In this document: in pieces, positions 13,522 through 39,793 of the stretch
Numbering within the stretch: the stretch's first letter is position 1
How the letters are laid out: each line of letters starts with the position of its first letter
From: Planctomycetota bacterium
Lineage (GTDB): Bacteria > Planctomycetota > UBA1135 > UBA2386
Assembly: GCA_002684655.1 (NCBI GenBank)
Contig: NYVR01000022.1
Coordinates: 30,175-94,174, forward strand
Length of the DNA stretch: 64,000 nt
Direction of reading: 5' to 3'
The notes under the pieces: generated by a model
Database searches by the model: none
Told to the model about the DNA's origin: nothing
The model's input: only the letters and a program-made list of their open reading frames with translations
Position numbers and translations under genes: made by a program

Positions 13522-13657
13522 GCTGCTCGTCGGACCTCCGCGTCGACCGTTGTCCGTGTTGCAGGTCGCCCTAGGGCAGCTATTTGCGGGCCGTTGTCGG
13601 CGCAGGGAACCTCTGCCCGGGGCTGTTGCGTAAACGGCCTGGGGGCTACAAGCACAG

Positions 13658-18781: not shown

Positions 18782-19023
18782 GTCCGGTGCAGTCTATGCA
18801 AGCAGCGTCGAATGATGGGGCCGCTTCGACGAATTGCCGGTGTCGAGACTCCGCCGGCGAAGCGAGCCCGTTGATCCAGGGAGTTCCGCTGGTGGGAAAG
18901 GGTCGCAGGTCTCGCCGTAGATACCTGTTGGCCGTAGAGTCCGCAGAACCCCCATCGCGTTGCTGCCGTTCGGAAAGGTCCTGCAGGCCACCGCGCGGCT
19001 CGCAGAACTTAGGATCGAAGTCA

Positions 19024-21753
19024 GTGTCGCTGCCATCGTTATTTGCGACGCGCGCCTGTGCGTGTGCCCTGCTCGCGCTCGCCTCGCTGTCTGCGCAGCG
19101 GGTGCGCGCAGAGCCGATGCTGGGCGCGCTCGGGACACCCGCTGGGCCGGTCGCCGGTGATGACCCGGGCAGGCCGGTCGAGATGTTCGAGAACCCCAAC
19201 CTCGACAACTATCTACGACGCGCCCGCTCCCTGTTGGAGCGGCAGGACTTCACGGGCGCGATTGAGTTGCTTCAGGACGTCATTGAGGGCGAGACCGTCG
19301 AGGTGGTCGCGGTGGGCGACGCTGAGTCTGCTGCCGCTGGGGAGGCCGCCCCGTCAGCTCAGCAGGGCGAGGACGCTTCGGCAGGCTCCTCTGAGGCGCT
19401 CACCGCGCGGAACGCCGTTTTTAGCGTGGACGGACGTATTTACCGGCCAGTGCGGCGGCTCTGCCACGAGCTCCTCGCAGAGATGCCTGACGTCGGCCTA
19501 GAGCTGTATCGCACGGCCTACGAGTTCACGGCTGAGGAGATGTTGGCCGCCGCGATCGCGAGCGGTTCGACGGTCGCCTTAGAGGCTGTGGCGAATCGTT
19601 ACTTCATCACGCTGCCGGCAGGCCGCGCGATGCTGCTGCTCGCCGATCGTTTGATGCACGCTGGCCGCTACCGCGGCGCGGTCCAGGTGCTGCGTGACCT
19701 CCTCGCGGTCTATCCCGAAAAGAACCGCGAGCGGCTCGGCATTCGCGAAGCCTGGTGTGGGTTCAAGATCGCGCTCTGCTTGCGTTTGGCGGGAGAGCCT
19801 GCCACCGCGCGAGCGGCGGTCGCGCAGCTCGCTGCGGATCATGCGGAGGAGTCTTTGCGCATCGCGGGACAGCTGGAGTCGGTGCGCGAGATGCCAAACG
19901 GCGCGTTGTTCGTTCGCGACACCGTCGCGATCGAAGACGGCGTAGCGATCGGTCGGGACGAATCCTGGGTCGACGGCGAGGCGCTCGCCTTGCTCCCGCT
20001 TTGGCAGTATCGATTCGAGGAGCGGGACCCATATCGAGACCCGAAGCCGTCGAAGACCAACCGCGGAAGCATCTGGATCGACAACCGCGGCTCGCGCTCG
20101 ACCGAGATGCCGATCGCGAATCGCTATGGCCCTGCGACCTGGGTCTCGTTCGCGGAAGAACGACGCGGCGGCGTCCTTGAGCCGCGCGCGTTGTTTTTAG
20201 AGCACTACCGCCTCCGCATGACGGACGCGGCCTCCGGCTTGCTGTTGCAGGCCAGCGACGGCCCCGCGCTGCCGCCAAAGGCGCGCGAGAATTATCCGCG
20301 CGTGCGGATCGCAGCCGCAGATCATGCGCTGCTGCGTCCGGTCGAAGATGAAGCTCGTCGCTACGTCATCATCGGCTATGCGGGTCGCTCGAATGCCAGC
20401 GACGCGGCGCTGCGAGCGAGCGAGCTGGTCGCATACGAGAAGCGCTCTTGGGCGCGCTCGTGGTCGTCTGTTGACTGGTTGGAGGGCGACGACGGCTTGC
20501 GTCGCGTGACCTTCCTCGCGGCGCCGACTGTGTTCGGGGAGCGGCTGCTCGCCCCTGCCATGCGCGGCGATTCTTATACGCTCGAATGCCTAGATCGTCG
20601 GACCGGCAAGCCGTTATGGCACACGCCGCTACACGCCGGCGGAACGAAGTTCTTTAAGGCGCCAGGGACACAGGTCGCAGTGCTTGGCGGCGTCGCATAC
20701 GTCGCGACCAACGCTGGCTGTCTCGCGGCTGTGGACGCGTTCGCTGGCGACCTTCGGTGGATCCGGCGCTACGAGCGGCTCGACCCGACGCACGGGTTGC
20801 AGCGGCGCCAGCAGCGTTCGAAGCGCGCAGCAAGCCGCGGCTACGGTAAGCAGTTCACCCAAGCTGCCTTGGAGAGCTTCGAGCCCGCGGACCTGATCCT
20901 GCACGGCGGCAGCGTCGTCATCGCGCCGTGCGACGGCGAGGTGCTGATGTCGATCGATGTAGCGACCGGCGCGCCGATCTGGATGCTAGATACGAACACA
21001 CACCACGCGCCCTACGGCAAGCTCACACAAGTGATCGGCGCAGGCGCCGGGCGGCTCTTCGTCGCGTCGCGGTCGCACGTGGTCGGCATCGATTTAGACG
21101 GCGGGCTGGTGCGCTGGATGGAGGAGTTGCCTCCATGGACGGGTCCGAAACACTCGGGCCGGGGTCGCGGCGCCGTCGTAGGCTCGACGGTCATCGTGCC
21201 GAATATGCGGGAACTGCTGCTGTACGACGTCGACAACGAATCGCCGCCTAGATCTGTGCCTCTACCGCCCTTCGACGAGGGGCGTGAGCCGCTGCAAGGC
21301 GCCTTCAACGTGGCCGTTCAGGGGCCTTGGTTGGCGGTTGGATACGCGGGCGGCGTCGAGGTCTTCAGCACGCAGTCGGCGCTCAGAGCGCTCGCGGCTT
21401 TCGTCGAGGAGCCGCTGCGTCGCGCTTCGTACTTGTCTCAGAGCGGCGACCTCGTCGGGGCAGAGCAGGTCCTCACAGACGCGCTGCAACATAGTGACGC
21501 CCTCGATGATCGGGTGCGCTTTGGGCGGCAACTGTTGGCCGCGGTCCGGGCGAGGGCGGAGCTGGCGTGGCAGCGCGGCGGTGTCGACGCGGCGCTCGGG
21601 GCGCTCGACAGCGTGCGCGATCTGTTGAACGACCGCGAACTCCGTCTCGAATGGCACCTCGCCCGCGTCGAGCTATGCAAGGCTGCAGGAGACATCCGCG
21701 CTCACGAAATCGAGCAACAGAGCCTCTACGACTACATGGAGGGTCGCAGGTGA
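19024..21753 (+). CDS. Secreted PQQ-like (BamB-type) beta-propeller / TPR-like protein
   Basis: The start is proposed at GTG 19024 (SLPSLFATRACACALLALASLSAQRVRA, a signal peptide). PQQ-like repeat signatures include GKPLWHTPL, VAYVATNAGCLAAVDAFAGDLRWI, TGAPIWMLD and DGGLVRWME. The N- and C-terminal regions are helical. Confidence 0.65.
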   Translation: MSLPSLFATRACACALLALASLSAQRVRAEPMLGALGTPAGPVAGDDPGRPVEMFENPNLDNYLRRARSLLERQDFTGAIELLQDVIEGETVEVVAVGDAESAAAGEAAPSAQQGEDASAGSSEALTARNAVFSVDGRIYRPVRRLCHELLAEMPDVGLELYRTAYEFTAEEMLAAAIASGSTVALEAVANRYFITLPAGRAMLLLADRLMHAGRYRGAVQVLRDLLAVYPEKNRERLGIREAWCGFKIALCLRLAGEPATARAAVAQLAADHAEESLRIAGQLESVREMPNGALFVRDTVAIEDGVAIGRDESWVDGEALALLPLWQYRFEERDPYRDPKPSKTNRGSIWIDNRGSRSTEMPIANRYGPATWVSFAEERRGGVLEPRALFLEHYRLRMTDAASGLLLQASDGPALPPKARENYPRVRIAAADHALLRPVEDEARRYVIIGYAGRSNASDAALRASELVAYEKRSWARSWSSVDWLEGDDGLRRVTFLAAPTVFGERLLAPAMRGDSYTLECLDRRTGKPLWHTPLHAGGTKFFKAPGTQVAVLGGVAYVATNAGCLAAVDAFAGDLRWIRRYERLDPTHGLQRRQQRSKRAASRGYGKQFTQAALESFEPADLILHGGSVVIAPCDGEVLMSIDVATGAPIWMLDTNTHHAPYGKLTQVIGAGAGRLFVASRSHVVGIDLDGGLVRWMEELPPWTGPKHSGRGRGAVVGSTVIVPNMRELLLYDVDNESPPRSVPLPPFDEGREPLQGAFNVAVQGPWLAVGYAGGVEVFSTQSALRALAAFVEEPLRRASYLSQSGDLVGAEQVLTDALQHSDALDDRVRFGRQLLAAVRARAELAWQRGGVDAALGALDSVRDLLNDRELRLEWHLARVELCKAAGDIRAHEIEQQSLYDYMEGRR

Positions 21754-22790
21754 TGGCTAGCAGACATTGGGTCGCAGCGGTGACGCTCGCGTTGGCGACG
21801 CTGTCGGTCCGCGCGCAGCAAGGCAGCTATCCACCCGGCGTCACCGAGGAGGTGCACGTCGCGATCCAGCGTGGGCTGCAGTGGCTCGAAAAGAACCAAG
21901 CGAGCGACGGTAGCTGGCGCAACTCCGGCGGCTACGGCAGCTATCCCGCCGCTATGACTGGGCTCGCGGGGATGGCGTTCATCGCCAGCGGCTCGACGCC
22001 AACGCGGGGACGCCACTGGCGGGCGGTGCGCCAGAGCGCGAACTTTCTGCTCAAGAACGCCGACCCCGGCAACGGTGTCATATCTGTGCCTTCTGAGGAG
22101 GGGCGCAGCATGTATGGCCACGGCTTCGCCACGCTGTATCTCGCGAGCGTCTACGGCATGGAGGAGGGGCTGCGCAAGCGGCAGCGCCTGAAGCGCACTT
22201 TGGATAAGGCTGTTGGATTGATCGCCTCGGCGCAGTCGACGGCCGGTGGCTGGATCTACACCCCTGATTCCAACAGCGACGAGGGCAGCGTAACGGTGAC
22301 GCAGATCCAGGCGCTGCGGGCGTGCCGAATGGCCGGCATCGTCTGCAACAAGAAGGTCGTCAACAAAGCCGTCGACTACATCAAACGCTGTCAGAACGCC
22401 GACGGGAGCATCCGTTACAGCTTGCGGTCAGGCGGTGACGGTCGCCCTGCGATCACGGCCGCCGGCGTCGCGGTGCTCTATAACGCCGGCGTCTACGATG
22501 ACCAGCCGTTCGTAGATGCCGCTGTTCGCTACTGCAAGAAGCACATCAAGGTCTCCGTGGACTCTACGGGCCACCACTACTACGCCCACTTGTACTGGTC
22601 GCAGGCGCTCTATCAGCGCGGCGGTCAAGACTGGGACGAATACTACAAGCAGGCCTGTCGCTACTTCCTTAAGCAGCAGCGCAAGGACGGCAGCTGGCAG
22701 GGCGACGGCGTAGGCATGGTCTATGGCACCGCGATCGCGCTGACGATTTTGCAACTCCCCTACGCGTATGCGCCGATCTACCAGCGCTGA
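21753..22790 (+). CDS. Prenyltransferase/squalene-oxidase repeat (alpha/alpha-toroid) protein, secreted
   Basis: ATG at 21753 overlaps the upstream TGA (TGATG). Signal peptide MASRHWVAAVTLALATLSVRAQQ. Repeated motifs: NQASDGSWRN, AQSTAGGWIY, CQNADGSIRY, QQRKDGSWQG. Confidence 0.7.
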   Translation: MASRHWVAAVTLALATLSVRAQQGSYPPGVTEEVHVAIQRGLQWLEKNQASDGSWRNSGGYGSYPAAMTGLAGMAFIASGSTPTRGRHWRAVRQSANFLLKNADPGNGVISVPSEEGRSMYGHGFATLYLASVYGMEEGLRKRQRLKRTLDKAVGLIASAQSTAGGWIYTPDSNSDEGSVTVTQIQALRACRMAGIVCNKKVVNKAVDYIKRCQNADGSIRYSLRSGGDGRPAITAAGVAVLYNAGVYDDQPFVDAAVRYCKKHIKVSVDSTGHHYYAHLYWSQALYQRGGQDWDEYYKQACRYFLKQQRKDGSWQGDGVGMVYGTAIALTILQLPYAYAPIYQR

Positions 22791-22826
22791 TCGAGCGCAC
22801 GATCCCCAGATGACAGGCACCACGCG

Positions 22827-25091
22827 ATGATCGGATTGGCGTTCCTCAATCCGCTGCTGCTCTGGGCGCTGCCGCTGGCGGCGGTGCCGGTGATCATCCA
22901 CATCCTGAATCGGCGAAGGTTCAAGAAGGTCCCTTGGGCGGCGATGGAGTTCCTGCTCAAGGCGATGAAGCGGAACCGCAAGAGGCTGCGCTTTGAGCAA
23001 TGGTTGGTGCTGCTGCTGAGGGTGCTGGCCGTCCTGCTTTTGGTCACTTTGGTGAGTCGGCCTCAGCTAGGTGGCGGAGCGCTGCTGGGTGCGCGCACGC
23101 ACCACGTCGTGATCCTGGACGACAGCGCTTCGATGACGCAGCGCAGCGGCAGCTCAAATCTCTTCGAAAAGGCCCAGGACAAGGTGCGCGAGTTAGCCGA
23201 CGAGCTGGCGCAGCGCCGCGACGGCGACATCTTCTCGATCGCCTTAACGTCGACGCCGGACGCCTGGGCGCTCGCGCCGCAACGCGTCGGCAGCAACTTC
23301 GGTCAGACCGCAGGGGCCGCGCTCAGGTCGCTGGTCGTCAGCGACTTGTCCGCGGACGTCGGGGCGGCCTTGCGCGCGGCCGTCGCGCGCAGCGCGGTCG
23401 TTGATGAGGCCTCGAGGACCGAGTTCTACATCGTCGGCGATCGCCGCAAGTGGGACTGGTCCACTGACGATGGCAAGCCGCGCGGTCAACTAGTCGAGGC
23501 GTTGACGTCTATGGATCGCGGCCGCGCGCACGTCACGGTGTTCGAGGTCGGCGGCCAGCACGACAACCTCGCGGTGGTCCAGGTCGCGCTGCTAGACCGC
23601 TTGGCGATCGCGTCCGTGCCGGTCAGCATGGGTGTCGACGTCAAGAACTTCGGGCTCGACCCGACGCCTGCGACGACCGTCGCTGTGGGTGTCGACGGTC
23701 GAACCAGCGTCAACCTGAACGTGCCGGACCTCGCCCCAGGCGAACGCGTCAGGGTGCCGTTTGCCCACACGTTCCACACGCCTGGTGCGCACCGCGTCGA
23801 GGCGACGCTGACGCCTGGCGGCACATTCTCCTTCGACGATCGCCGCACGCTGGCGCTGCAAATCCGCGATAAGAGCCGCGTCTTGCTAGTGGACGGCGAG
23901 CCGGACGAGGGTGACGGCGAGACGTTTTTTCTGCGCGCCACGCTGGATGTGCCGGAGTCCGGGATCGAGGCTCAGGTGGTCACCGAATCGGGCTTCGACG
24001 AGGTCAACCTCGGCGCCTTCGACATGGTGTGGCTCTGCAACGTTCAGGCGCCCACGAAAGAGGCGGCCGAGCGCCTTGAGGCCTTCGTCATGTCTGGCGG
24101 CGGCCTCGCGATCACACTGGGTTCGTTGGTCGACGCGCGTCGCTATAACGAGCTGTTGTGGCGCGGCGGCGAAGGGCCGTTGCCGCTGCCGATCGGCGAC
24201 ATTGACGGTGACCCTGACCGGCCCGCGTCGGCGTTCCTCGCCGCAGCGGATCACCCGGTGTGCGACGGCGTGGCTGAGTTGTTCCAGCTGGTGATGGGCA
24301 GGTGGGTTCAGGTCAAGCGGTGGTTGACCATCGAGCAACCCGACGGCCACGAGGCTGCGGTGGTCGCGCGTGTGCGCGACGCGGAGGGGCCGCCGCTGCT
24401 AGCGACGCGGAGCTACGGCGTGAAGGGCGGCGAGGTCGCGCTGTTCGCGATCACCGCGGACCGTTTTTGGAGCAACCTCCCTAGCACGGACCTGTTCTTG
24501 GTGATGACCCATCAACTGCATCGCTTCGCGGCGCGACGTGACGATCTGAGCCAGCACAACCTCGCCACGGACGACACCTGGAGCAGGCAGCTCGACCCTG
24601 GCCTCTACCTACCGGACGTGACGCTGCGCGCCGCGGGTGGTGACGATGAGCGCACGTTCACCGCCACCGCGCCGCTGTTCGAGGGCGGCTCTGAGGCAGC
24701 CAACGGTGACCGTGATGTGCAGGCAGGCGTCGCCTCTGCGTCGAACGCCGCGCCGGTCGATCCCCCGCCGCTCGAAGTCGAGGTCGACCTCAGGGGGCTG
24801 TCAGAGCGAGGCGCGTATGAGGTAACCCTGCAGCGACACGACGGTGTGACGGAGCGTCAGATCCTGGCGCGCAACGGACCCGTCGACGAAGGCCGTTTGG
24901 TCGCTTTCGACGAGGCCAGCTTCAAGAGGCTCTACGCAGCCAACGTGCACGACCTAGTCACGTTCGCGCGCGGTGAGGGCGGCGTCGGCGCGCGCGCTAG
25001 CGAGGGAGAGGCGTGGCCGTTGCTAGCGGGCTCGCTGCTCTTGGGCCTGTTACTCGAGTCCTTGTTGGCGTGGAGGTTTGGCCGCCGCTAG
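22827..25091 (+). CDS. BatA-type N-terminal double-transmembrane / VWA-like protein
   Basis: FLNPLLLWALPLAAVPVIIHILNRRRFKKVPWAAMEFL is the aerotolerance-regulator N-terminal signature. MIDAS-like VVILDDSASM. There is a C-terminal TM segment. Confidence 0.75.
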   Translation: MIGLAFLNPLLLWALPLAAVPVIIHILNRRRFKKVPWAAMEFLLKAMKRNRKRLRFEQWLVLLLRVLAVLLLVTLVSRPQLGGGALLGARTHHVVILDDSASMTQRSGSSNLFEKAQDKVRELADELAQRRDGDIFSIALTSTPDAWALAPQRVGSNFGQTAGAALRSLVVSDLSADVGAALRAAVARSAVVDEASRTEFYIVGDRRKWDWSTDDGKPRGQLVEALTSMDRGRAHVTVFEVGGQHDNLAVVQVALLDRLAIASVPVSMGVDVKNFGLDPTPATTVAVGVDGRTSVNLNVPDLAPGERVRVPFAHTFHTPGAHRVEATLTPGGTFSFDDRRTLALQIRDKSRVLLVDGEPDEGDGETFFLRATLDVPESGIEAQVVTESGFDEVNLGAFDMVWLCNVQAPTKEAAERLEAFVMSGGGLAITLGSLVDARRYNELLWRGGEGPLPLPIGDIDGDPDRPASAFLAAADHPVCDGVAELFQLVMGRWVQVKRWLTIEQPDGHEAAVVARVRDAEGPPLLATRSYGVKGGEVALFAITADRFWSNLPSTDLFLVMTHQLHRFAARRDDLSQHNLATDDTWSRQLDPGLYLPDVTLRAAGGDDERTFTATAPLFEGGSEAANGDRDVQAGVASASNAAPVDPPPLEVEVDLRGLSERGAYEVTLQRHDGVTERQILARNGPVDEGRLVAFDEASFKRLYAANVHDLVTFARGEGGVGARASEGEAWPLLAGSLLLGLLLESLLAWRFGRR

Positions 25092-25103
25092 GCGGACAGG
25101 GCG

Positions 25104-27599
25104 ATGGACGACTTCTTGCGATGGTTGGCGCAGTGGCGCGGGGTCACCGTCGAAGACGGCGCGGAACTGCAGTTCGAGTTCGCCGGTTTCCCGACCGGCG
25201 GCCTCGGCATGCTCGTGCTGATGGGCATGGCCGCTGCGGTCGTCATGGTCTGCTTCATCTATCGCCGTGACGGGCAGAGTCTCAAGATCTGGCAACGGCT
25301 ATTGCTCGGGTCGCTGCGCGCCCTGGCCGTGCTCGCGGTGATCTTGCTGTTGCTGGAGCCGAACATCGTGACCGTCGAACGTGAGGTGCGCGAAGGGCAC
25401 ACGATCTTGTTAGTGGACACGTCGCAGTCGATGAACCACGCGGACGCGTGGCGTCGCGACGAGGTCCAGGACGCCGTGGCTGGCTGGGCAGAGTTCGGCG
25501 TCGAAGACCCCGCGTCCGGGACCCGCCTCGATCTCGTGAAGGCGCTGCTCGGCACAGACGGTCAGGCGTTTGTCCGGAAGCTTGGCGCCAAGAACCGCGC
25601 GCAGCTCTTCGGCTTCGACGGCGCCATCCACGATCTGCCGGTGGTGACACCGGAGCAGGCGTCTGAGGTTGGCGATGAACGACCGCCGGGCGATGGCGCA
25701 GGCTTGGCGCGGCCGAACCTCCTGGAGCTCGATGACTTGGTCGCCGACGGTCGCTCAAGCAACCTTGGAGACGCGCTGCGCACCGCGCTCGACAAGAGCC
25801 GGTCTGCGGAGGTCGCTGCTGTCGTGTTCGTCACCGACGGCCGCCGGACAGCGGGGCCGCAGGGCGCCGAGATCGCGCGGCTGCTCGAACAGCGTAAGGT
25901 CCCCCACACGTTCGTGCTGGGTGTCGGGGATCCGTCGGAGACCCAGACAGTCACGCTGGCGCGTTTAGAGGCGCCAGCCAAGGTCTTCCAGCGCGACCCC
26001 TACGAGCTGCAGGCGACGATCACCTCACAGGGCTACGACAGCGTCACAGTGACCGCGAGGCTTGTTCGCGTCGACGCGCAGGGCAACGAGGAGGTCGTCA
26101 ATACCCAGCAGGTGCAGATCGACGAGCGCCAGCAGGCGACGGTCGAGTGGAAGGGCCTGTCGAGCGATGCGCCTGGTCGTTTCGTCTACCGCGCCGAGGT
26201 CGTGCCGCCTGGCGGCGAACCGCCGGCTAAAGATCGTCACTACCAGACCGCAGCCGTCGAAGTGCTAGGTGAGCGTCTGCGCTTGCTCTTGCTCGCTGGC
26301 GGTTCGAGCCACGAGTTTCAGATCTTGCGCACCTTGTTCATCCGCGACAAGACGATCGACGTGAGCTGTTGGCTGCAGAGCGCCGACGAGACGTTCCCGC
26401 AGGATGGTGACGAGGGCGCGCGCATCCAGCGGCTGCCCCAGCGGCGCGCTGAGCTGGACCCTTACGACGTGGTCGTCATGATCGACCCCGACCCGCGCAA
26501 GCTGTCGCGCGAGTTCTGCGAGCGGCTCGCTGCGCACGTAACGGAGAGCGGCTGCGGGCTCTGGTGGGTCGCCGGTGAGCAGCACACCCTTGACGCGCTG
26601 CGTCCGAACGCGACCACACAGCCGATCGCGGACCTGTTGCCGATCCTTCCGGACGTCGAGTTCGCCGAGCGCAAGATGCTGGGCCTCGGCAAGGCCTTCC
26701 CGCGGCCGTGGCGTTATCGGCTGACATCTGATGGCGTTGACGGCGTCGGCGCGAAGGTGATGCGCCTCGACGACGACAAGGACACCAGCAAGCTGATCTG
26801 GGATCGCATCCCGGGCTTCCACTTCTGGTTCCCTGTCGCAGGGATCAAGCCAGTCGCGACCTCGCTCGCCGGCCACCCGAGTCCAGATTTCCGCATCGGC
26901 GGTGACGACATGCCGGTGATCGCGATCCAGAAAATCGGCGCCGGGCGGGTGCTCTTCGTTGGGACGGATGAGACCTATCGTTGGCGCTCGCTGTACGAGG
27001 ACGCCTACAACCGATTCTGGGTCAACGGCGTACGTCACCTGTTCGAAGGTCGTCTCCAGGCAGGCAATAGCCGCTTGCGGCTGCTGACCAGCGACGACAA
27101 GGTCGAACTAGGCGACGCTGTTGAGCTGGTCGCAGAGGTTAAAGATCAGGCCATGCAGCCGCTGATCGCAAACGCGTACGCCGTCCAGATCGAGCGCGAG
27201 GGAGAGGCCTCTGAGTCGGTCGACCTCCTGCCCGTCGAGGCTGCGCCGGGGAGCTTTGCACTGCGTTACAGGCCGACGCAGCTAGGCACCTACCGCGTGC
27301 GTCCCGCCGTGAAGGGCGGCAAGAGCGTAGAGGTCTCGTTCCAGGTCGCGCCGTCCTCGATCGAATCGCAAGGGCCAATGGATCGCAGCGAGCTCGCGGC
27401 GATTGCCGGCGCGAGCGGCGGCGTCATGTTCGATTCGCCCGCAGCGCTGATGGCGGCGCTAGACGACGTCCCGTCACGTTCGGCTACGGACACGTTCCGT
27501 ACGCCACACGCCGTCTGGGACGGCTGGCCTACTATCGCGCTCGTGCTGGCGCTGCTGTCCATCGAGTGGCTCCTGCGTAAGCGCTTCAACCTCCTATGA
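25104..27599 (+). CDS. Membrane VWA-domain protein
   Basis: N-terminal TM segments, MIDAS motif ILLVDTSQSMN, VVFVTDGRRT, and a C-terminal TM segment WPTIALVLALLSIEWLL. Confidence 0.7.
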   Translation: MDDFLRWLAQWRGVTVEDGAELQFEFAGFPTGGLGMLVLMGMAAAVVMVCFIYRRDGQSLKIWQRLLLGSLRALAVLAVILLLLEPNIVTVEREVREGHTILLVDTSQSMNHADAWRRDEVQDAVAGWAEFGVEDPASGTRLDLVKALLGTDGQAFVRKLGAKNRAQLFGFDGAIHDLPVVTPEQASEVGDERPPGDGAGLARPNLLELDDLVADGRSSNLGDALRTALDKSRSAEVAAVVFVTDGRRTAGPQGAEIARLLEQRKVPHTFVLGVGDPSETQTVTLARLEAPAKVFQRDPYELQATITSQGYDSVTVTARLVRVDAQGNEEVVNTQQVQIDERQQATVEWKGLSSDAPGRFVYRAEVVPPGGEPPAKDRHYQTAAVEVLGERLRLLLLAGGSSHEFQILRTLFIRDKTIDVSCWLQSADETFPQDGDEGARIQRLPQRRAELDPYDVVVMIDPDPRKLSREFCERLAAHVTESGCGLWWVAGEQHTLDALRPNATTQPIADLLPILPDVEFAERKMLGLGKAFPRPWRYRLTSDGVDGVGAKVMRLDDDKDTSKLIWDRIPGFHFWFPVAGIKPVATSLAGHPSPDFRIGGDDMPVIAIQKIGAGRVLFVGTDETYRWRSLYEDAYNRFWVNGVRHLFEGRLQAGNSRLRLLTSDDKVELGDAVELVAEVKDQAMQPLIANAYAVQIEREGEASESVDLLPVEAAPGSFALRYRPTQLGTYRVRPAVKGGKSVEVSFQVAPSSIESQGPMDRSELAAIAGASGGVMFDSPAALMAALDDVPSRSATDTFRTPHAVWDGWPTIALVLALLSIEWLLRKRFNLL

Positions 27600-29845
27600 A
27601 ACCCACGACGACTCGAGAGTCGTCGGCGCCCCCGCCGACCCCAACGCCGCTCGGCAACGCGTTGCAGGCGGCGCGCGAGCGACTGCATCAGCAGCGCAAG
27701 CGCGTCCGGATCGGGCTGTGGGTTGAGACCGTCGGCGTTGCGGCGTTGATGATGGTTGCATACGCCGCCTCGACGATGTTGGCGGATCGTTTCCTGCGGT
27801 TGGAGTGGTCGTTCCGCGCGGTCTTGCTCGCGTGCCTGGCAGCTCTCCTTGGGCGAGTTGTTGTGCGGCGTCTGTTGCGACCGATGACGGTGCAGTTGAG
27901 CGATGAGGAGCTCGCGCTCGCCGTCGAGCGGTCGTGTCCACATCTTGAGCAGCAGTTGATTAGCTCGCTGCAGTTCGACCGAGAGCTCGCCGAGGGGCAA
28001 GAGGACTCGTCGGTAGATTCGCGGGCGCTAAAGGCCGCCGTCGTCCAGGAATTGCGCGACAGCTTGCAGACGGTGCCGTTCGCTCAGGCCGTCGACACCA
28101 TGCGGGTGCAGCGGTTCTCGGGCGGCGTCTTCGTGATGATCGCCTTTTTCTCGGCGTGGGCGAGCGTCGATGGGGTCTCGCTCGGTATCTGGGCCGCGCG
28201 TAACGTCGCCCTGACTGACACCGACTGGCCGCGTCATACGAAGCTTTCGTTTGTCGGCGGCGCGTCTGAGGTGCGGTTACCGCAGGGCGACGCGCTGACG
28301 GTGCGCGTCCGCGCCGAAGGAGCCGCGCCCGATCAGGCGTATTTAGACTATGCCTTCGCCGACGGTGACGTGGGCGTCGAGCCGATGAGCCTTACCGGTG
28401 ACGGCGAGTTCACATGGACCATCGACTCAGTGGTCGGTGATCTGGACCTGAGCGTGCAAGGCGGCGATTCGCTGCCGATCGATCTGCAGGTCCGCGTCGT
28501 CGAGCGACCGGCGGTCGGGGACCTGTCCATTCGCGTGCGACTCCCTGACTACATGCAGCGTGACCCGTTCGATGTCCCGCGCTCAGAGGGGGAGCTCCGC
28601 TTGCCAGCGGGCGCGGCGTTGTCGATAACGGGGCGCAGCAGCAAGCCGTTGCAGCAGGCTTTCGTGCTCTTCGGCGGCGAACGCAAGGTCATGCTAGACC
28701 TCGCCGACGACCAGCGCGCTTTTGAGGGGATCGTCTCGCCTACGGAGAGCGGCCTGATGGTCGTAGACGTGATCGATCGAGACAGCCTCGGAGCGGGCGC
28801 GCCGCCTAAGTTGCTGCTGCAAATCAGCGAGGACGAAGCGCCGATCGTCGATTTTCGTCTGCGTGGTATCGGCTCTTCGATCACCTATGCGGCGCGGATA
28901 CCCGGCGCGCTGCGCGTTCGCGACGACTTCGGGTTACGCGCGGTCGCGGCACAGATGCGCGTTCAAGACGGCAGCACGACCGCTGGCGGCGACGAGCCGT
29001 CGACAACCACGTGGACCGACGCGGAGCCGCTCTACGACGATCAGCTGCAGCGCAGCGCGCTGCGATACCAAGCCGAAGCGAGCGTCGATCTCTTGACCTG
29101 GAACAAGGTGCGAGATCAGAACGCGTCCGGGAACCTCATTCGACCTGGCATGGTGTTCTCGCTGCGCTACTCGGCGACCGACAACTTCGGCCCGGGTGAC
29201 CCCCACCGCGGCTATGGCGAGACGATGGCGTTTCGCGTCGTCCCGCGCGACCAGCTGATCGAGGAGCTGCGACGTCGCCAGGTTGAGCAGCGCGCGGAGC
29301 TGCAACAGATCGCGGACCGCGAGGCGGCGGCTGCGCTTGAGCTCCGCGAAACCGTCAACCCTGACGAAGCGGGCGACCGACAGCCACAGGCGGCCGCGAG
29401 GTTTCGCGTCTTCGCGCGTCGGCAGCAAGCGCTCGGTCGGCGCGCGCGCTTCGTCGGCGAGGCCTACCAGCGCATCCTCTGGGAGCTCGAGAACAACCGC
29501 CTCATCGAGGAGAACAAGGTTCGTCAGATCGAGGCGGTCATCACGGCGCCGCTGGAGCAGCTGGCAAAGGAGGCATTCCCCGCGACCGCGAGGCTCGTCA
29601 GTGACTTCGCACGGTCCCCCGAAGAATCCATAAGATCATCAGCTATAGATGGTTACCGCGATATTGGCCGCCGCCTTGCCGAGATCATCAAGGCGATGGA
29701 GCAGGCCGAGACCCTGGCCGCCCTACTCGAAGAACTGCGGAATGTGATTAACCTGGAGACGGACGCGATCTCCGACGTTCGGCGGCGGATCAGGAATCGT
29801 GAGGACAGCCTGTTCAAGCCCAAGAAGAAGCGCAAGAAGAACTGA
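27596..29845 (+). CDS. Hypothetical membrane protein, DUF4175-like by recollection
   Basis: ATGA start/stop overlap with the upstream gene. Two N-terminal TM segments, a long beta-rich middle region, and a helical C-terminus ending in KKKRKKN. Confidence 0.6.
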   Translation: MKPTTTRESSAPPPTPTPLGNALQAARERLHQQRKRVRIGLWVETVGVAALMMVAYAASTMLADRFLRLEWSFRAVLLACLAALLGRVVVRRLLRPMTVQLSDEELALAVERSCPHLEQQLISSLQFDRELAEGQEDSSVDSRALKAAVVQELRDSLQTVPFAQAVDTMRVQRFSGGVFVMIAFFSAWASVDGVSLGIWAARNVALTDTDWPRHTKLSFVGGASEVRLPQGDALTVRVRAEGAAPDQAYLDYAFADGDVGVEPMSLTGDGEFTWTIDSVVGDLDLSVQGGDSLPIDLQVRVVERPAVGDLSIRVRLPDYMQRDPFDVPRSEGELRLPAGAALSITGRSSKPLQQAFVLFGGERKVMLDLADDQRAFEGIVSPTESGLMVVDVIDRDSLGAGAPPKLLLQISEDEAPIVDFRLRGIGSSITYAARIPGALRVRDDFGLRAVAAQMRVQDGSTTAGGDEPSTTTWTDAEPLYDDQLQRSALRYQAEASVDLLTWNKVRDQNASGNLIRPGMVFSLRYSATDNFGPGDPHRGYGETMAFRVVPRDQLIEELRRRQVEQRAELQQIADREAAAALELRETVNPDEAGDRQPQAAARFRVFARRQQALGRRARFVGEAYQRILWELENNRLIEENKVRQIEAVITAPLEQLAKEAFPATARLVSDFARSPEESIRSSAIDGYRDIGRRLAEIIKAMEQAETLAALLEELRNVINLETDAISDVRRRIRNREDSLFKPKKKRKKN

Positions 29846-29903
29846 TTGTCCGCGCTGCCTACGCTGCCTCGGACCCTCGCTCAAGGTCACCGTTGAACTG
29901 CTC

Positions 29904-31550
29904 ATGACATCACGCTGTATCGCCACGTTGGCGGCTGTGCTCCTGGTCACGACGACGCCTTTGTCGTCGCAGCAGGGCTCGCCGACTGCCGCCCAAAGCA
30001 AGCAGGAGCTCGCCGAGGGCAAGTTCAAGCAGTTGACGGACCGCATGCAGAAGATGATGGTCGTCCTGCAGAAGGACGAGCCCGAAGAGAGCAAGCTGCT
30101 GGGCGTGGGTCTGCGTTTTGTCCAAGAGAAGAGGCTGCATCGTCGGCTCGAGTCCGCTGGCGCGATGTTGCGGCAGGAGCGCTGGGACGAGTCCCTAGTC
30201 TTGATGGGCAAGCTCCGCGAAGACCTCCGGTCTCTGCTAGCGTTGCTGCAGAACCGCGACGGGGACCTGCGCAAGCTGCTCGCGCGTATCGATCAGTTGG
30301 AGGGATTTAGGGATCGGGTCGACCAGCTCGCCTCAGAGCAGCAGCAGGCAAAAGAGGATTCCGCGCGCGCTGAGGCGCTCAAACGACACCTTGAGGACAT
30401 CGAGGCCCAGCGACGCCGCGCCGGAGACCTGCTGAATCAGCAGCAGGCCCTGCGAGACGAGACCAACCAGTTGCCGCGCGACACCGCCGCGGGGGCGACG
30501 ACTCCGTTGGCGAAGAAGGAGGGCGAGCTCCAGGCAGCAGCCGTGGAACTCAGCAAGGACCTGCGCGATCTCGACAAGCAGGACGCCGCCCTCAAAGCAG
30601 ACGCGAAAGCGGTCAGCAAACCGGACGATGCGAAGCCCGCTGGAGGCGCGTCGAGCAGCGCTGACGCATCGCGCGGTAAGTCGAGCGACAGCGCCGGCCA
30701 AGCGTCGGCGTCGATGGGCAAGGCTGAGGAGCAGCTCGGCGCTCAGCAAGCCGAGGCTGCGCTAAAAGACCAGGACGAAGCGATCGCCGCGCTCGATCAG
30801 ACGATGAAGCAGCTCGACGCCATGGCCGCGGCGGCCCGACGCGAGCTCATGAAGCTCTCTTTCGACCAGCTCGCGGAGCGACAAGGCCAGACCGAGCAAG
30901 CGACCGACGCGCTCGCTAAGGATATGGAGCAGGCTGAGCAGTCGGACCAGGGCGGCGAAGGCGAGCCCACACCCGGTAAGAGCAAGGTCCAACAGGCCGT
31001 CCCAAAGCAGCGCGCTGCGGCAGGAAAGCTCAAAGAGATGAAGCCGGCTAAACAAAAGCAGCAAGACGCGAAAGACGACCTAGAGGCCGCGAAAGAGGCG
31101 CTGGAGGGAGCGCTCACGCAGCTGCGGGAGCAGCTGCAGGACGAAGCGCTGCGTGCGCTCGAAGAGCGCTTCACGGCGATGTTGGCACGTCAACGTGAGC
31201 TCACGCTCATGACCGCGACGGTCGACGCCTCGCGTCGGAACATCCTCACCGCCGATGGTGGGCTGCCTGCAGCGCTGATCGGAAAGATCGACGCCATCGC
31301 CCAGGGCGAGAGCGAGTTAGAGCTCGAGACGGTCGAAGCGCTCAAGCTCCTCGACGAAGACGGGACGACGGCGGTTTTTCCGCCGATGGTCGAACAGCTT
31401 CGTGATGACCTGAGAGATCTCGTTCGTGTCCTGCGCGCGCGCCAGACCGGCGTCGAGACCAATCGGGCGCAAAGAGACGTCGAGGACCTCCTTGAGCTCT
31501 TGATCAACGCGCTGCGTCGCACGATCGAGAAGAAGGAAGGCGGGGGTTGA
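29904..31550 (+). CDS. Secreted coiled-coil, low-complexity protein
   Basis: ATG at 29904 gives MTSRCIATLAAVLLVTTTPLSSQQ, a signal peptide. The rest is a long Glu/Lys/Ala/Gln/Leu-rich heptad-like sequence. It ends at a TGA that is in frame with the next ORF. Confidence 0.6.
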   Translation: MTSRCIATLAAVLLVTTTPLSSQQGSPTAAQSKQELAEGKFKQLTDRMQKMMVVLQKDEPEESKLLGVGLRFVQEKRLHRRLESAGAMLRQERWDESLVLMGKLREDLRSLLALLQNRDGDLRKLLARIDQLEGFRDRVDQLASEQQQAKEDSARAEALKRHLEDIEAQRRRAGDLLNQQQALRDETNQLPRDTAAGATTPLAKKEGELQAAAVELSKDLRDLDKQDAALKADAKAVSKPDDAKPAGGASSSADASRGKSSDSAGQASASMGKAEEQLGAQQAEAALKDQDEAIAALDQTMKQLDAMAAAARRELMKLSFDQLAERQGQTEQATDALAKDMEQAEQSDQGGEGEPTPGKSKVQQAVPKQRAAAGKLKEMKPAKQKQQDAKDDLEAAKEALEGALTQLREQLQDEALRALEERFTAMLARQRELTLMTATVDASRRNILTADGGLPAALIGKIDAIAQGESELELETVEALKLLDEDGTTAVFPPMVEQLRDDLRDLVRVLRARQTGVETNRAQRDVEDLLELLINALRRTIEKKEGGG

Positions 31551-31583
31551 ACAGGTTGCGGAGACGGCAAGAAGCCGCCGCTC

Positions 31584-31793
31584 GTGCCCGTGTCGGCAGA
31601 GCTCAAGATGTTGAAGTTCCTTCAAGAACGCGTGAACAAAGAGACCAAGCAGGTCGAGGCGCTCGGCGCTGCGAGTAAAGCGCAGCAGGGCGACTACGAT
31701 CAGGTGTCGCGTAAGCAGTCGCGCGTAAAGTCGCTGATGCGTCGTCTCGCCGAGAAGCTAGGCGAGCAAGACGCAGGCGAGGAGGGCAAGTGA
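31584..31793 (+). CDS. Small ORF in the same frame as the preceding gene; it may be its detached C-terminus
   Basis: Same reading frame as 29904..31550, separated only by TGA (31548-31550) and 11 open codons. The sequence is AELKMLKFLQERVNKETKQVEAL... Confidence 0.4.
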   Translation: MPVSAELKMLKFLQERVNKETKQVEALGAASKAQQGDYDQVSRKQSRVKSLMRRLAEKLGEQDAGEEGK

Positions 31794-32845
31794 TGCAGTG
31801 GCCCCCAGCAGTCGCGGTCCTCGTGACGGCGGTGATGGCCTCCGGGCTTCGGGGCCAGGTGCAAATACCGGGCGACGGCGTGCTGCCCGAGGCGCACTTG
31901 CCGAAGGTGACGCCCGTCCCGGCGCAGAGCCCGTTCAAGCCGTTGGATCTGACCGCGTTCCAGCTCGCCGTGCGGGCGCTCGGCGGCACGGCGCTACAGG
32001 TCAAGACGTTCGCCGAAGAGGCTGTCGAAGTCGGCCCCGCTCGGGCCGGCGACGGCTTGCTTCGCATGGTGTTGCCTAGTTTCGACGTGGCGGTGACGGC
32101 CGCCGAGGGCGGGGACCCGAACGCCGCGCTGCTGCTCGCGAAGGTCTTGGTCGACGCCGAGTCGAAGGTGGTTCAAGCGCACGCCCGCTACCACCTCGCG
32201 CGTGTGTTCCTCGATAGCGACGACCCTGAGCGCGCGCTCAAGGTGCTGGATGACTACTTGGCGCAGACCCTTAACGTGTCGCCGCTCGACAGCGAGGTGG
32301 CGTATCTCTACGCGCAGTCACTCGCGGAGATCCCGATGATCGACGCGGCCATTCCGCGGTTCCGCGCCTTCCTGGCGTGGTTCCCTGACGCGAGCGAGCG
32401 GCTGCGGTCAACCGCTCACCAGCGGATCCTGGAGCTTGAGCGTCAGCGTGAGAGCCGTCTTCACATGCTCGCGGACGGAATGAAGAAGACCACCCGCGAC
32501 CTTCAGAAGCGCAAGACTGACAAGCCGGTTCAAAGAGACCAGGAGACCTACATCGAAGAGCTCGACTATCTCATTGAGATGTTCAAGGAGATGGAGAACC
32601 AGTCGTCGGGCGCCCCCTCAGGCAACGGTCCCTCAAGCAATCCAGCTTCGAACAGCTCCTTGGCCAAAGGCGACGGCAGCGTCGGCGAGCTCAAGAAGCG
32701 ACCTTCACTGGCGGATCGGTGGGGCCCGATGCGCGACAGTGAGCGCAAGAAGATCATGGCCGACGTGCAGAGCACGATGCCGCCCCAGTACCGAAAGATG
32801 CTGGAGGATTACTACAAGAAGCTCGGTAAGGCTGACCGCAAGTGA
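31793..32845 (+). CDS. Secreted hypothetical protein, helical/TPR-like
   Basis: GTG at 31790 or ATG at 31793 overlaps the upstream TGA. The N-terminus MQWPPAVAVLVTAVMASGL is hydrophobic. The central region is helical-repeat-like. The C-terminus is YYKKLGKADRK. Confidence 0.6.
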   Translation: MQWPPAVAVLVTAVMASGLRGQVQIPGDGVLPEAHLPKVTPVPAQSPFKPLDLTAFQLAVRALGGTALQVKTFAEEAVEVGPARAGDGLLRMVLPSFDVAVTAAEGGDPNAALLLAKVLVDAESKVVQAHARYHLARVFLDSDDPERALKVLDDYLAQTLNVSPLDSEVAYLYAQSLAEIPMIDAAIPRFRAFLAWFPDASERLRSTAHQRILELERQRESRLHMLADGMKKTTRDLQKRKTDKPVQRDQETYIEELDYLIEMFKEMENQSSGAPSGNGPSSNPASNSSLAKGDGSVGELKKRPSLADRWGPMRDSERKKIMADVQSTMPPQYRKMLEDYYKKLGKADRK

Positions 32846-34056
32846 GCAGGTTGTCCATCGTTGGTCCTGTCTTCGTGGCGCTGCTCAGTGCGGCGGTTAC
32901 AGCGCAAGCAGAAGGCGAGGTCCAAACGATCGACGGGCGGGCGTTCCAAGGTAGCTTTGTCGTCGCAGCTAACGGTGAAGTGACCGTTCGCGGCGAGTCG
33001 GGGGACACGGTGATCGGGATCGAAGAGCTCGTCTCGTTCGTCCCTGAGGGGGTCAGGGCGCGCAACGTACGCACGGAACACCGCGTTTGGCTTCGCTCCG
33101 GCGTCGACCTACCGGCAAGGAGGCTTTCAGGCCGCGGACCTGCTGACGGCGAGCCCTCGACGCTGCTCGTCGGTCTCCCGTGCGGCGCATCCATCGAGCT
33201 GCCGTTGAGCGCGGTGCGCGCGATTCGGCACGGCGGGCTCTCGCGGCCGCAGCCGGCGTTGTTCGAGCGCGACCTCCTCGAGCCGCCTGCTAACGAAGAC
33301 GTGATCTACGCGATCGGTGGCGGCAAGTCTCAGCGCTCGCTGGTAAAGCTCACCGCCGTTCGGGAGCGATCGATCGATTTCGTCCTGCGCGGCGATGAAT
33401 ACGAGTTTGGCTTAGACGGGCTCGCAGGCGTGGTCTTTGGCGAGAACACGGGCTTCGCGCCTGACCGCCAAGCGAGCCCTCGCACGAGCGTGATTTTGAC
33501 CACGGGGGAGAAGCTCGAAGGCAAGTTGTTAGAGGTGGGCGAGCGCGTGCGCTGCCGCCTCGACGAAGGCTGCGTGCTCGACGTCCCCGTGAGTTCTCTG
33601 CGTGAGCTGCGGGTCTCAAGCGACAAGCTGGTGTGGCTGAACGACCTCGAACCACGCGTCGAGCAAACACCCGCGTTCGATCGCGTCTGGCCTTGGCATA
33701 ACAACAGGTCTGTCGCGGGTCCGGGTTTCCTGCTCGGCGGGCACCGTTATGAGCGCGGCGTCGGTCTCGTCCCGCGCGCTCGCCTGACCTACGTGATCGC
33801 AGGTCGCTTCGACGTCTTCGAGGCCGTGATCGGCATCGACGACCGGGGCGGCCCAGCGGCGCACGCGATCTTCCGGGTCTACGTCGATGACAAACAAATG
33901 TTTGAGTCCAAGCCAAAGGTGCTCGGTGGCGCGCCGTCGAAGGTCCGCGTCGAGCTGAATCGGGCGAAGACCCTCTCCATTGAGGTCGACTTCGGCAAGA
34001 ACTACGACCTCGGCGATTTCTGCGCGTTCGCCGACGCGCGTCTCCTCCAGAAGTAG
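32842..34056 (+). CDS. Secreted protein with a C-terminal NPCBM-like (GH98-associated carbohydrate-binding) domain
   Basis: GTGA start/stop overlap. Signal peptide LSIVGPVFVALLSAAVTAQA. The C-terminus LNDLEP...WPWHNNRSVAG..LLGGHRYERGVGLVPRARLTY...FEAVIGIDD...FRVYVDD....LSIEVDFG...DLGDFCAFADARL fits the NPCBM pattern. Confidence 0.7.
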   Translation: MSRLSIVGPVFVALLSAAVTAQAEGEVQTIDGRAFQGSFVVAANGEVTVRGESGDTVIGIEELVSFVPEGVRARNVRTEHRVWLRSGVDLPARRLSGRGPADGEPSTLLVGLPCGASIELPLSAVRAIRHGGLSRPQPALFERDLLEPPANEDVIYAIGGGKSQRSLVKLTAVRERSIDFVLRGDEYEFGLDGLAGVVFGENTGFAPDRQASPRTSVILTTGEKLEGKLLEVGERVRCRLDEGCVLDVPVSSLRELRVSSDKLVWLNDLEPRVEQTPAFDRVWPWHNNRSVAGPGFLLGGHRYERGVGLVPRARLTYVIAGRFDVFEAVIGIDDRGGPAAHAIFRVYVDDKQMFESKPKVLGGAPSKVRVELNRAKTLSIEVDFGKNYDLGDFCAFADARLLQK

Positions 34057-34224
34057 TCCGTCGCCGACGCGCTCGCTCCACTTTGTCGGGTGTGATGCTG
34101 TGCGTCGGCTGGGCGCATGCCGCTAGGTAGCCGCGGCCGAGCTCTGCGAGGCTGTCATGGCCGTGGCGCGCGCGTAGTCGCCCCGGCAGGAGGTCAAAAG
34201 GTCGCTCAGCGCGACGGCGAGCGG

Positions 34225-37000: not shown

Positions 37001-37305
37001 TGTCTCCTGAAGATCGGGTGATGCTCAGGCGCGCGGTCGCCAGGATGCGATCGCGGATCGTTGCTGTCTCGTGCGCGGTGATCAGCGGCTCTGCCCTGAT
37101 GATTGCAACGATCCTGCACATCGCGCGAGAGCGCGCCCCGTCCACCTTGGACATCGCTTTGCTCGCGAACTACTTGCCTGGCTACAGCGTCAGCTGGCTC
37201 GGGGCGCTGCTTGGTTTGTTCTATGGCGCGCTCCTCGGCGGAGTCTTTGGCGGAGTCTTCGCGTGGTTCTACAACCGGCTCGCGATGCGAGATCCTGCGT
37301 CGTGA
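36997..37305 (+). CDS. Small two-TM membrane protein, paralog of the oxidoreductase C-terminal module
   Basis: ATGA overlap with the upstream stop. LLANYLPGYSVSWLGALLGLFYGALLGG aligns with the two other copies. Confidence 0.65.
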   Translation: MMSPEDRVMLRRAVARMRSRIVAVSCAVISGSALMIATILHIARERAPSTLDIALLANYLPGYSVSWLGALLGLFYGALLGGVFGGVFAWFYNRLAMRDPAS

Positions 37306-37333
37306 GGCGGGCACCCCGGGGTAGAGGTCACCG

Positions 37334-38239: not shown

Positions 38240-38253
38240 GTCCGAAGGCGCCG

Positions 38254-39780: not shown

Positions 39781-39793
39781 CGGACCTTATACG

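Follow-up and report, generated by a model that had tools for sequence, protein, structure and literature searches.

The window examined here is a stretch of 64 kb (~65 % GC) from a contig of a Planctomycetota bacterium (GenBank accession number NYVR01000022.1), and all positions given for it are those of the window. The closest named relatives of the proteins it encodes belong to uncultured Planctomycetota from marine and other metagenomes. Consecutive plus-strand open reading frames (ORFs) fill 19024-34056 in an unbroken run and make up a Bat-like operon, one gene of which contains an in-frame TGA and most probably encodes a selenoprotein. The genes of the operon, designated A to H below, and a divergently oriented gene upstream of them are the following, with profile matches in brackets (TM, transmembrane).

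16493-18781, minus strand: divergent upstream gene, exported HEAT and arylsulfotransferase-like beta-propeller protein (Pfam HEAT_2, Arylsulfotran_2)
19024-21753, plus strand: A, exported protein with TPR and a PQQ_2 (BamB-like) beta-propeller (PQQ_2 6.9e-16, TPR_6 1.4e-7)
21753-22790, plus strand: B, exported alpha/alpha-toroid protein of 345 residues with squalene-cyclase/prenyltransferase repeats (SQHop_cyclase_C 7.6e-11)
22827-25091, plus strand: C, BatA-type inner-membrane protein (BatA 1.6e-18, TIGR02226 7.8e-21, CARDB 5.9e-7, VWA_2 1.6e-3)
25104-27599, plus strand: D, second inner-membrane VWA protein, with TM segments (VWA 1.7e-3, below the cut-off)
27596-29845, plus strand: E, three-TM protein of an unnamed large family (AlphaFold model, pLDDT 82)
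29904-31793, plus strand: F with its small ORF, read as one gene for an exported coiled-coil protein of ~600 residues with a C-terminal helical bundle
31793-32845, plus strand: G, exported TPR protein with a charged C-terminal tail (TPR_19 8e-5 and other TPR families, all below curated cut-offs)
32842-34056, plus strand: H, exported protein with a C-terminal NPCBM (CBM51-type) glycan-binding domain (NPCBM 4.2e-23)

The initial annotation had described nine consecutive plus-strand ORFs separated by overlaps or short gaps, and both the run and every junction in it stand. A and B overlap in a TGATG at 21753, D and E in an ATGA at 27596, the small ORF and G in a TGATG at 31793, and G and H in a GTGA at 32842, and gaps of 36, 12 and 58 nucleotides (nt) separate B from C, C from D and E from F, respectively. 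The number of genes is, however, eight, as F and the 69 aa ORF that follows it share a frame with one TGA between them. Terminator-like sites within the cluster are not in excess (6 against 10.4 expected from shuffled sequence), and the scan for terminators and promoters was uninformative. A begins at a GTG (19024), and A, B, F, G, H and the divergent upstream gene all have signal-peptide-like N-termini with no lipobox, the remaining products, C, D and E, being membrane-anchored according to TM predictions. All products of the cluster are thus predicted to be exported or anchored in the inner membrane with their bulk in the periplasm. These predictions and the profile matches bear out the earlier description of the region as an operon of the Bat-like BatA/VWA kind, whose products are exported or lie in the membrane. 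The individual assignments (BatA N-terminus, VWA, NPCBM, prenyltransferase repeat) largely held in profile searches, as did the PQQ/TPR nature of A, the resemblance of the toroid B to prenyltransferases and terpene cyclases, the description of C as a BatA-type double-TM VWA protein, and the NPCBM domain of H (values above).

The N-terminal double-TM hairpin of C is a BatA N-terminal domain (PF07584/TIGR02226; both matches above the curated cut-offs). [quoted passage not shown] The orthologue of C in the distantly related locus L055 has VWA_2, CARDB and weak ThuA matches, and the profile of C weakly matches CARDB-like proteins, 2gk3 and BatB (3ibs) in the PDB. D consists of a TM hairpin, a VWA domain (MIDAS motif DTSQS at residue 105), Ig and GATase1-like regions, a macroglobulin (MG)-like domain and a C-terminal TM anchor. 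Its profile weakly matches TRAP, the integrin alpha-M I-domain, BatB (3ibs), STM1381 and an MG domain of alpha-2-macroglobulin. The VWA matches of the window's own C (1.6e-3) and D (1.7e-3) are both below the Pfam cut-offs, but D had been called a second membrane VWA protein and the call is upheld by its DTSQS motif and by VWA matches in 8 of 13 orthologues (best 1.1e-7); 10 of the 13 also match DUF7408. In both C and D the C-terminal TM helix is followed by basic residues. Sequence searches of the PDB with C and D, and a search with the profile of E, gave nothing useful. The possibility that C and D are recent paralogues was rejected, as BLASTP gives a best E of 1.5 and only the domain architecture, seen in weak profile matches, is common to the two. 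B and C share a reading frame with a single TGA between them (22788-22829), and the 12 intervening codons show no coding conservation; this TGA looks coincidental, with C beginning with BatA_N at its first Met.

In the AlphaFold model, E comprises an N-terminal TM part and cytoplasmic helices, four to five Ig/MG-like sandwiches (residues 216-548) and a long helical bundle (551-740), and a Foldseek search with the model returned only generic Ig/MG arrays (complement C3/C5, alpha-2-macroglobulin) with TM-scores of no more than 0.23. The family is large, with 8792 cluster representatives found by profile at E<=1e-3 and 1245 at E<=1e-30. Though E had been labelled DUF4175-like, neither it nor any of 32 close family members (n=33) matches Pfam DUF4175 (PF13779), even at E<=1. 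A link to that family exists only through intermediates, namely P0267, which matches PF13779 at 4.1e-10, and P0294-P0311, which carry precomputed PF13779 matches, and the E family therefore appears to be only remotely related to DUF4175. DUF4175 proteins resemble E in having N-terminal TM helices and a large extracytoplasmic part, but true members are ~1150 residues long and the locus inspected (L056) has no Bat-type operon around the gene. That E and F are paralogues, or the two halves of a DUF4175-like protein, was considered and rejected (hhalign probability 0.3 %).

B is the most conserved gene of the cluster, sharing 85-88 % identity with its counterparts in relatives compared with about 70-78 % for the other genes, which suggests strong constraint and possibly an enzymatic role. 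It is tandemly duplicated in L005 (2983-5065) and L008 (3166-5234). Against PDB sequences it matches terpene cyclases only along short repeat stretches, and its identification as a class II terpene cyclase or prenyltransferase was rejected because it includes neither a DxDD nor a DDxxD motif and is only 345 residues long. Hence, B has the fold family of these enzymes but is probably not one of them. G, previously described as a helical-repeat protein, can be narrowed to a TPR protein, with the reservation that all of its matches fall below curated cut-offs. In H, residues 264-401 cover positions 3-136 of the 137 in the PF08305 profile; its matches among PDB sequences are 7js4 and the CBM51 entries 2vmg and 2vmh, and sugar binding is predicted. 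Both G and H keep their positions in all relatives, L054 and L055 included in the case of G.

F had been taken for a coiled-coil protein followed by a separate small ORF; the in-frame TGA of what is best read as a single gene (29904-31793) had been missed. The F part spans 29904-31550 and the 69 aa ORF 31584-31793, with a GTG start at 31584. The junction between them reads RRTIEKKEGGG, then the stop, then TGCGDGKKPPLVPVSAELK, and it holds two features.

31548-31559, plus strand: predicted redox motif U-T-G-C, formed by the TGA at 31548-31550 (predicted selenocysteine, Sec, U) and the Cys codon TGC at 31557-31559
31551-31591, plus strand: stem-loop directly 3' of the UGA, resembling a selenocysteine insertion sequence (SECIS), with an inner stem-loop at 31563-31579 and the apical loop at 31569-31573

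A scan of metagenomes with the small-ORF peptide gathered 49 orthologous junctions. In 43 of them an in-frame TGA lies at the junction, within a Gly-rich linker. The in-frame stops of these 43 loci number 60, all of them TGA without a single TAA or TAG, and no more than five residues from each there is a Cys or another TGA, in the following arrangements.

U-TG-C: 5 loci, the window among them
U-TGT-U: 15 loci
U-x4-U: 2 loci
U-TS-C: 6 loci
C-U: 7 loci
C-GH-U: 7 loci
U-x4-C: 1 locus

The six stop-free loci all have Cys in the linker (for example C-GQ-C in L038), and two stop-free database proteins read GGH-C-TGQ-C (P0313) and GN-C-N-C. Cys thus stands at positions that align with UGA in other orthologues, as in GGH-C-TGQ-C of P0313 against GGH-U-TS-C of L030, and C-GQ-C of L038 against C-GH-U of L032. 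The Cys-form orthologues are P0313, L038, L035, L047/L048, L051, L007 and P0314, and the F and small-ORF parts are fused in L007, L035, L038, L047, L048, L051, L054, L055, P0313 and P0314. Coding conservation extends to both sides of the UGA (RRTIEKKEGG before it, PPLVPVSAELK after it), and the amino acid conservation of the GG..PPL segment reaches upstream of the GTG of the small ORF, which has no signal peptide of its own. Apart from the partner Cys of the motif, the mature protein of the window includes no Cys, and it has low-complexity acidic stretches amid the coiled coil. In orthologues with two UGA codons (U-TGT-U, U-TGTG-U) these are 4-5 residues apart (L002-L005, L013-L015, L017, L020-L025, L028 and L029; L008 and L046). 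An additional Cys motif (GSCSGS or GSCECSGS) is seen in the central Ser/Gly/Ala-rich region of F in L036, L039, L043 and L048, and none is found in the window's protein.

The C-terminal domain of the Cys form P0313 was modelled with AlphaFold (pLDDT 80, pTM 0.70). The motif falls in a flexible, low-confidence loop (residues 121-136) between helices that pack into one bundle, which argues against two separate polypeptides. A Foldseek search with this domain found generic helical bundles only and no match at E<=0.001. As TGA is the ordinary stop of six of the eight operon genes, there is no global reassignment of the code, and the Sec-decoding trait has been documented in several Planctomycetes (PMC4807772). 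Of 21 database entries retrieved for the F region, 18 have a predicted protein that terminates at precisely the UGA, and none is named a selenoprotein. Scanning the window for an in-frame TGA with coding signal on both sides revealed no selenoprotein gene besides the F junction, nor did a scan of 614 kb (the window and the loci) for an in-frame TGA with GGTC at +22.

The stem-loop was compared across 23 distinct sequences, with nt counted from the U of the UGA, so that the apical loop is nt 22-26. Paired bases occupy 83 % of the cells, compared with 37-47 % when the partner columns are slid. The pair 18:30 is U-A in 16 sequences, C-G in 7 and unpaired in none (n=23), and the pair 21:27 occurs as three pair types, that is, with compensatory changes. 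The covariation score exceeds those of all 500 shuffles; as relatedness inflates such scores, this evidence is supportive of the stem-loop, not conclusive. Of 28 distinct sequences with a UGA, 16 have GGUC in the apical loop (nt 22-25), exactly where it stands in the SECIS of Escherichia coli fdhF (NC_000913.3). In all 16 sequences of this type (16/16) the GGUC is formed with a GGT codon, which makes up 3-17 % of the Gly codons in the operon of the window and four sampled relatives, including the Cys form L048, and at the same codon the Cys-form sequences have GGC (4/5) or GGG (1/5). In-frame UGA, a stem-loop immediately after it, GGUC at nt 22-25 and alternation of Sec with Cys among orthologues are the features that F shares with genes of the fdhF type (E. 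coli formate dehydrogenase H). The host protein differs, being an exported coiled-coil/helical-bundle protein rather than an oxidoreductase domain, and many F orthologues have two UGAs.

From these sequence comparisons, F together with its small ORF is very probably an unannotated exported selenoprotein with a Sec/Cys pair. The alternative, that the UGA is a true stop and the two ORFs are separate genes, would give the hairpin another function: it would sequester the GUG of the small ORF until the terminating ribosome opened it, coupling translation of the two genes with no Sec involved. GTG 31584 does lie in the 3' arm of the outer stem, public gene callers annotate two genes, neither Sec machinery nor tRNA-Sec was found in the window and loci, and Rfam gave no SECIS match at the junction. 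We nevertheless regard this alternative as rather unlikely. The small ORF, with no signal peptide, would have to supply what in the fused orthologues is the C-terminal part of an exported protein and lies in the same helical bundle. GG..PPL is conserved ahead of the GUG, and all 60 stops are TGA. No UGA occurs without a Cys or another UGA as its partner, stop-free orthologues have Cys in its place, double in-frame stops three codons apart and conserved in 15 loci make no sense as terminators, and GGUC stands at nt 22-25 as in the fdhF SECIS.

The arrangement of the operon was then compared among relatives. The order A-B-C-D-E-F-s-G-H, where s is the small ORF, is kept in L004 and L005 at 67-86 % protein identity and in L007 and L008, where the identity of E is about 52-53 %. 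A further 13 long metagenome contigs of marine, freshwater and soil/rhizosphere origin keep it with E identity down to 45 %, and at least 17 long loci keep B-C-D-E-F/s-G-H; conservation of gene order, by which the proposed operon was to be judged, is therefore seen in every relative examined. More distant operons were reached by walking from the E profile to the Planctomycetia member P0270 and then through gene neighbourhoods. At 26-35 % protein identity, with E at about 26-31 %, the Planctomycetia operon runs (MoxR C-terminal lid)-DUF58-BatA (C)-giant PQQ/TPR/HEAT protein-VWA (D)-E-F-TPR (G)-NPCBM (H)-Trypsin/PDZ proteases. DUF58 is directly upstream of the BatA gene in L054, L055 and L058, and in L058 the MoxR C-terminal lid (AAA_lid_2) is also seen ahead of DUF58. 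As the PQQ/TPR protein, the VWA protein D, E, F, the TPR protein and the NPCBM protein lie beside DUF58/MoxR in the distant operons, they are ancestral members and not replacements.

The giant PQQ/HEAT protein, the gene for which lies after BatA and before the second VWA gene in L054, L057 and L058, matches two proteins of the window: A is homologous to its N-terminal part, and the divergent upstream gene (16493-18781), the position of which is kept in L004 and L007, to its C-terminal part. By this homology the divergent gene belongs to the operon's system. No tblastn match to B was found in L054-L058, and the toroid gene is, on the present comparison, a clade-specific addition and the only one in the operon. 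In the window's clade the operon has thus become separated from its MoxR-DUF58 head and has gained the toroid gene, and the PQQ protein has been divided and relocated.

Three translationally coupled HtrA-like genes (Trypsin_2, with or without PDZ) follow the NPCBM gene in every relative with enough downstream sequence except L016 (for example L004, at 16488-20562, L005, L007, L008 and L020). None is found in the 64 kb of the window, where the stop of H is followed after 170 nt (the 34056-34225 interval) by a convergent gene for 248 aa that in relatives lies past the proteases. This looks like a clean deletion or a relocation of the protease genes.

The initial annotation had noted that MoxR and DUF58 are missing locally. 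It is correct that neither adjoins the operon, in the window or in close relatives, and that DUF58 is absent from the 64 kb: Pfam scans of the 43 large ORFs found none, and tblastn with three planctomycete DUF58 proteins gave a best E of 0.11. A MoxR gene is, however, present.

60578-61585, minus strand: solitary MoxR ATPase gene, 26.5 kb downstream of the operon (AAA_3 6e-63, AAA_lid_2 5.2e-13)

Its neighbours encode a histidine kinase (58459-59886), a TPR protein (61843-62994) and an enoyl-ACP reductase (63026-63838), and neither DUF58 nor VWA genes lie beside it. This lone gene may be the detached ATPase of the operon, a candidacy for which the adjacency of MoxR, DUF58 and BatA genes in L058, L054 and L055 is the sole basis.

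It had also been proposed that a carbohydrate-binding module (CBM) and an alpha/alpha-toroid protein were recruited in place of the ATPase module, so that the complex would be independent of MoxR and DUF58 and have a function unrelated to the classical Bat systems. In agreement with this, no DUF58 gene occurs in 64 kb and no MoxR gene within 26 kb, close relatives likewise have neither beside the operon, and the toroid B is specific to the clade. However, the NPCBM, TPR, PQQ/TPR, E and F genes share an operon with DUF58 in L054, L055 and L058, and with MoxR in L058, so that in the distant operons these supposed replacements occur together with what they are said to replace, and the window does include a MoxR gene. 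Recruitment in this sense is not supported, and we consider an independent complex unlikely.

Our preferred interpretation, to which we assign a probability of about 0.6, is that we see here a local version of a MoxR/DUF58/BatA envelope operon with deep conservation in Planctomycetota, the products of which would form a periplasmic scaffold anchored in the inner membrane with, in this clade, a Sec/Cys centre. By analogy with the BatA-type protein BB0173 of Borrelia, the VWA domain of which is periplasmic (PMC5700661), C and D would be held in the cytoplasmic membrane by the N-terminal TM hairpin and the C-terminal anchor, with their MIDAS-bearing VWA domains facing the periplasm. Together with E they would make up an inner-membrane platform of TM helices, an Ig/MG-like array and a helical stalk, onto which the coiled coil F, the TPR protein G, the TPR/propeller proteins (A and the divergent upstream gene product) and the toroid B could dock. 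The NPCBM domain of H would tether the assembly to a glycan layer, be it peptidoglycan, an outer-membrane glycan or a surface glycan. Maturation or remodelling of complexes with VWA proteins is the presumed role of MoxR ATPases (PMC3893208), and an unlinked MoxR, possibly that at 60578-61585, and a DUF58 protein encoded elsewhere would mature or remodel this one, as proposed for other MoxR-VWA pairs; in relatives, the three HtrA-type proteases possibly service it. The exposed Sec/Cys pair of F (U-x-x-C) in its Gly-rich loop could form a selenylsulfide and act as a redox-active or soft-metal-binding centre. The net function would be envelope integrity or stress handling rather than metabolism. 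In the account cited in PMC3893208, mutation of the MoxR-type operon RL3499-RL3502 of Rhizobium affects membrane integrity and cell morphology, and a bat mutant of Bacteroides fragilis was partly rescued by reducing agents (PMC3557215).

A number of observations count against this interpretation. No tRNA-Sec or other Sec machinery (selA, selB, selC, selD) was found in the window or in 21 loci, a search that did not cover whole genomes, and Rfam over the whole window identifies a tRNA-Arg only and no SECIS family at the UGA junction. The window and its marine relatives differ from fdhF-type genes in their loops: the apical loops of the marine subclade lack GGUC, and the window's own hairpin is weak, with a 4 bp inner stem, the loop AAGAA and a z of 0.08. 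Where there are two UGAs, the second is inside the stem-loop, ~10 nt from the apical loop and too close for spacing of the E. coli type. In distant Planctomycetia the linker of the F orthologues is devoid of both Cys and Sec, and hence a redox role would be a clade-specific add-on and not the core function of the family. The link between the lone MoxR gene and the operon is circumstantial. We infer the physical assembly of the proteins from co-linearity alone, and the biochemical function of the operon from sequence and models. Finally, Leptospira bat deletions showed no oxidative-stress or morphology phenotype (PMC3557215).

Though the parts of the operon could also be read as a split protease trap or defence device akin to alpha-2-macroglobulin or complement, with MG-like arrays in E, D and C, B in the place of the thioester-containing domain (TED) and serine proteases, this is very unlikely. 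Foldseek does match E to the MG arrays of C3, C5 and Salmonella alpha-2-macroglobulin, the D profile weakly matches an MG domain of alpha-2-macroglobulin, B is an alpha/alpha toroid, and relatives have three trypsin-like proteases. However, TM-scores of <=0.23 are those of generic Ig-array matches, and B, which a motif scan showed to have no CxEQ thioester motif, resembles terpene-cyclase repeats rather than a TED and is absent from the distant versions of the operon.

The genes on either side of the operon are of several kinds. A polysaccharide-synthesis cluster (35159-44348) begins 1.1 kb downstream and includes a FAD amine-oxidase-like gene, two GT2 genes, a Wzx-type flippase, GT87 and PMT_2/TPR genes. 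It is followed at 44389-47173 by Peripla_BP_2, FecCD and ABC transporter genes, orthologues of which (iron-siderophore type) come after the proteases in L007 and L008, and from this arrangement the polysaccharide cluster is probably a local insertion. That the operon is an accessory of these genes, exporting or anchoring a surface glycan, as the nearby glycosyltransferase, flippase and GT87 genes and the NPCBM domain of H might suggest, is highly improbable given that the adjacency is not kept in L007 and L008, where the operon leads through the proteases to the transporter. Upstream of the divergent gene, a run of envelope-related and protease-like genes at 11423-16499 comprises Peptidase_MA_2/DUF1570 (11423-12442), LemA (12958-13521), a TPR protein (13658-14698) and an M48 peptidase (14658-16499). 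Elsewhere in the window are an HNH endonuclease (2856-3674, minus strand), ParB (5414-6550, minus strand), LexA (49323-49949), an M61 peptidase (50192-51931, minus strand), tRNA-Arg(CCG) (51988-52064, minus strand), an extracytoplasmic function (ECF) sigma factor (53310-53984) and a sigma-54 activator (56478-57791).

The operon shares with the Bat operons of B. fragilis, Leptospira (batA/B/D) and Borrelia (BB0170-BB0176) a BatA_N double-TM domain with a MIDAS VWA domain, a second TM-anchored VWA protein, a TPR protein and products that are membrane-bound or exported, and its distant planctomycete orthologues are headed by MoxR-DUF58. It differs in the length of C and D (about 750-830 residues), which in the window include CARDB, GATase1-like and MG-like domains and C-terminal anchors, and in the unlinked MoxR and DUF58 of the window's clade. 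No match to BatD (PF13584) or to the SH3 domain borne by BatE was found among the operon proteins at E<=0.01; E could be a functional analogue of BatD. The planctomycete extras are the E family, the coiled coil F, with a predicted selenocysteine in the window's clade, the NPCBM protein, the PQQ/HEAT propellers, the HtrA proteases and the toroid B. Compared by description, RL3499-RL3502 of Rhizobium leguminosarum, which has a MoxR of the MRP subfamily, is likewise a broadly conserved MoxR-type operon with an envelope phenotype, as far as the cited account goes, which speaks for an envelope role of such systems. It is an operon of four genes and, to our knowledge, has no NPCBM, coiled-coil selenoprotein or protease genes. 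CxxU and UxxC are the redox motifs of thioredoxin-fold selenoproteins, and animal thioredoxin reductase ends in Gly-Cys-Sec-Gly. The motifs of F orthologues (C-G-H-U, U-T-G-C, U-T-S-C, G-G-C-U-T-G) have the spacing typical of a selenylsulfide and lie in a Gly-rich segment, but there is no thioredoxin fold around them, the loop being between bundle helices in the model, and redox activity is a prediction. Literature searches found no description of the operon or of the selenoprotein. The operon is best filed, on its gene content, as a new and much enlarged variant of the MoxR/DUF58/BatA systems, with about 11-13 genes and conserved across Planctomycetota.

Operons of the MoxR/DUF58/BatA type are widespread and have been connected with aerotolerance, resistance to stress, virulence and the integrity of the envelope, with no known mechanism. 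The components of the planctomycete version suggest a periplasm-spanning, glycan-tethered scaffold built from VWA/MIDAS anchors, an Ig-array stalk, a 600-residue coiled coil, a lectin-type module and HtrA proteases. For the annotation of this genome, two ORFs become one gene, the upstream divergent gene joins the system and the protease genes appear to have been lost. If the Sec/Cys pair is real, a selenoprotein family has gone unannotated, rare cases in bacteria of paired Sec codons separated by a few residues are at hand, and Bat-type systems gain a concrete, testable redox handle. A further and tentative proposal is that the F family comprises new exported bacterial selenoproteins in which one or two Sec residues (U-x-x-C, C-x-x-U, C-U, U-x-x-x-U) in a flexible loop undergo selenylsulfide or diselenide cycling, the complex being a periplasmic redox device or sensor. 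Should this possibility prove true, sequence data would for the first time back a proposal made 25 years ago, namely that Bat-type MoxR/VWA systems manage periplasmic reducing power.

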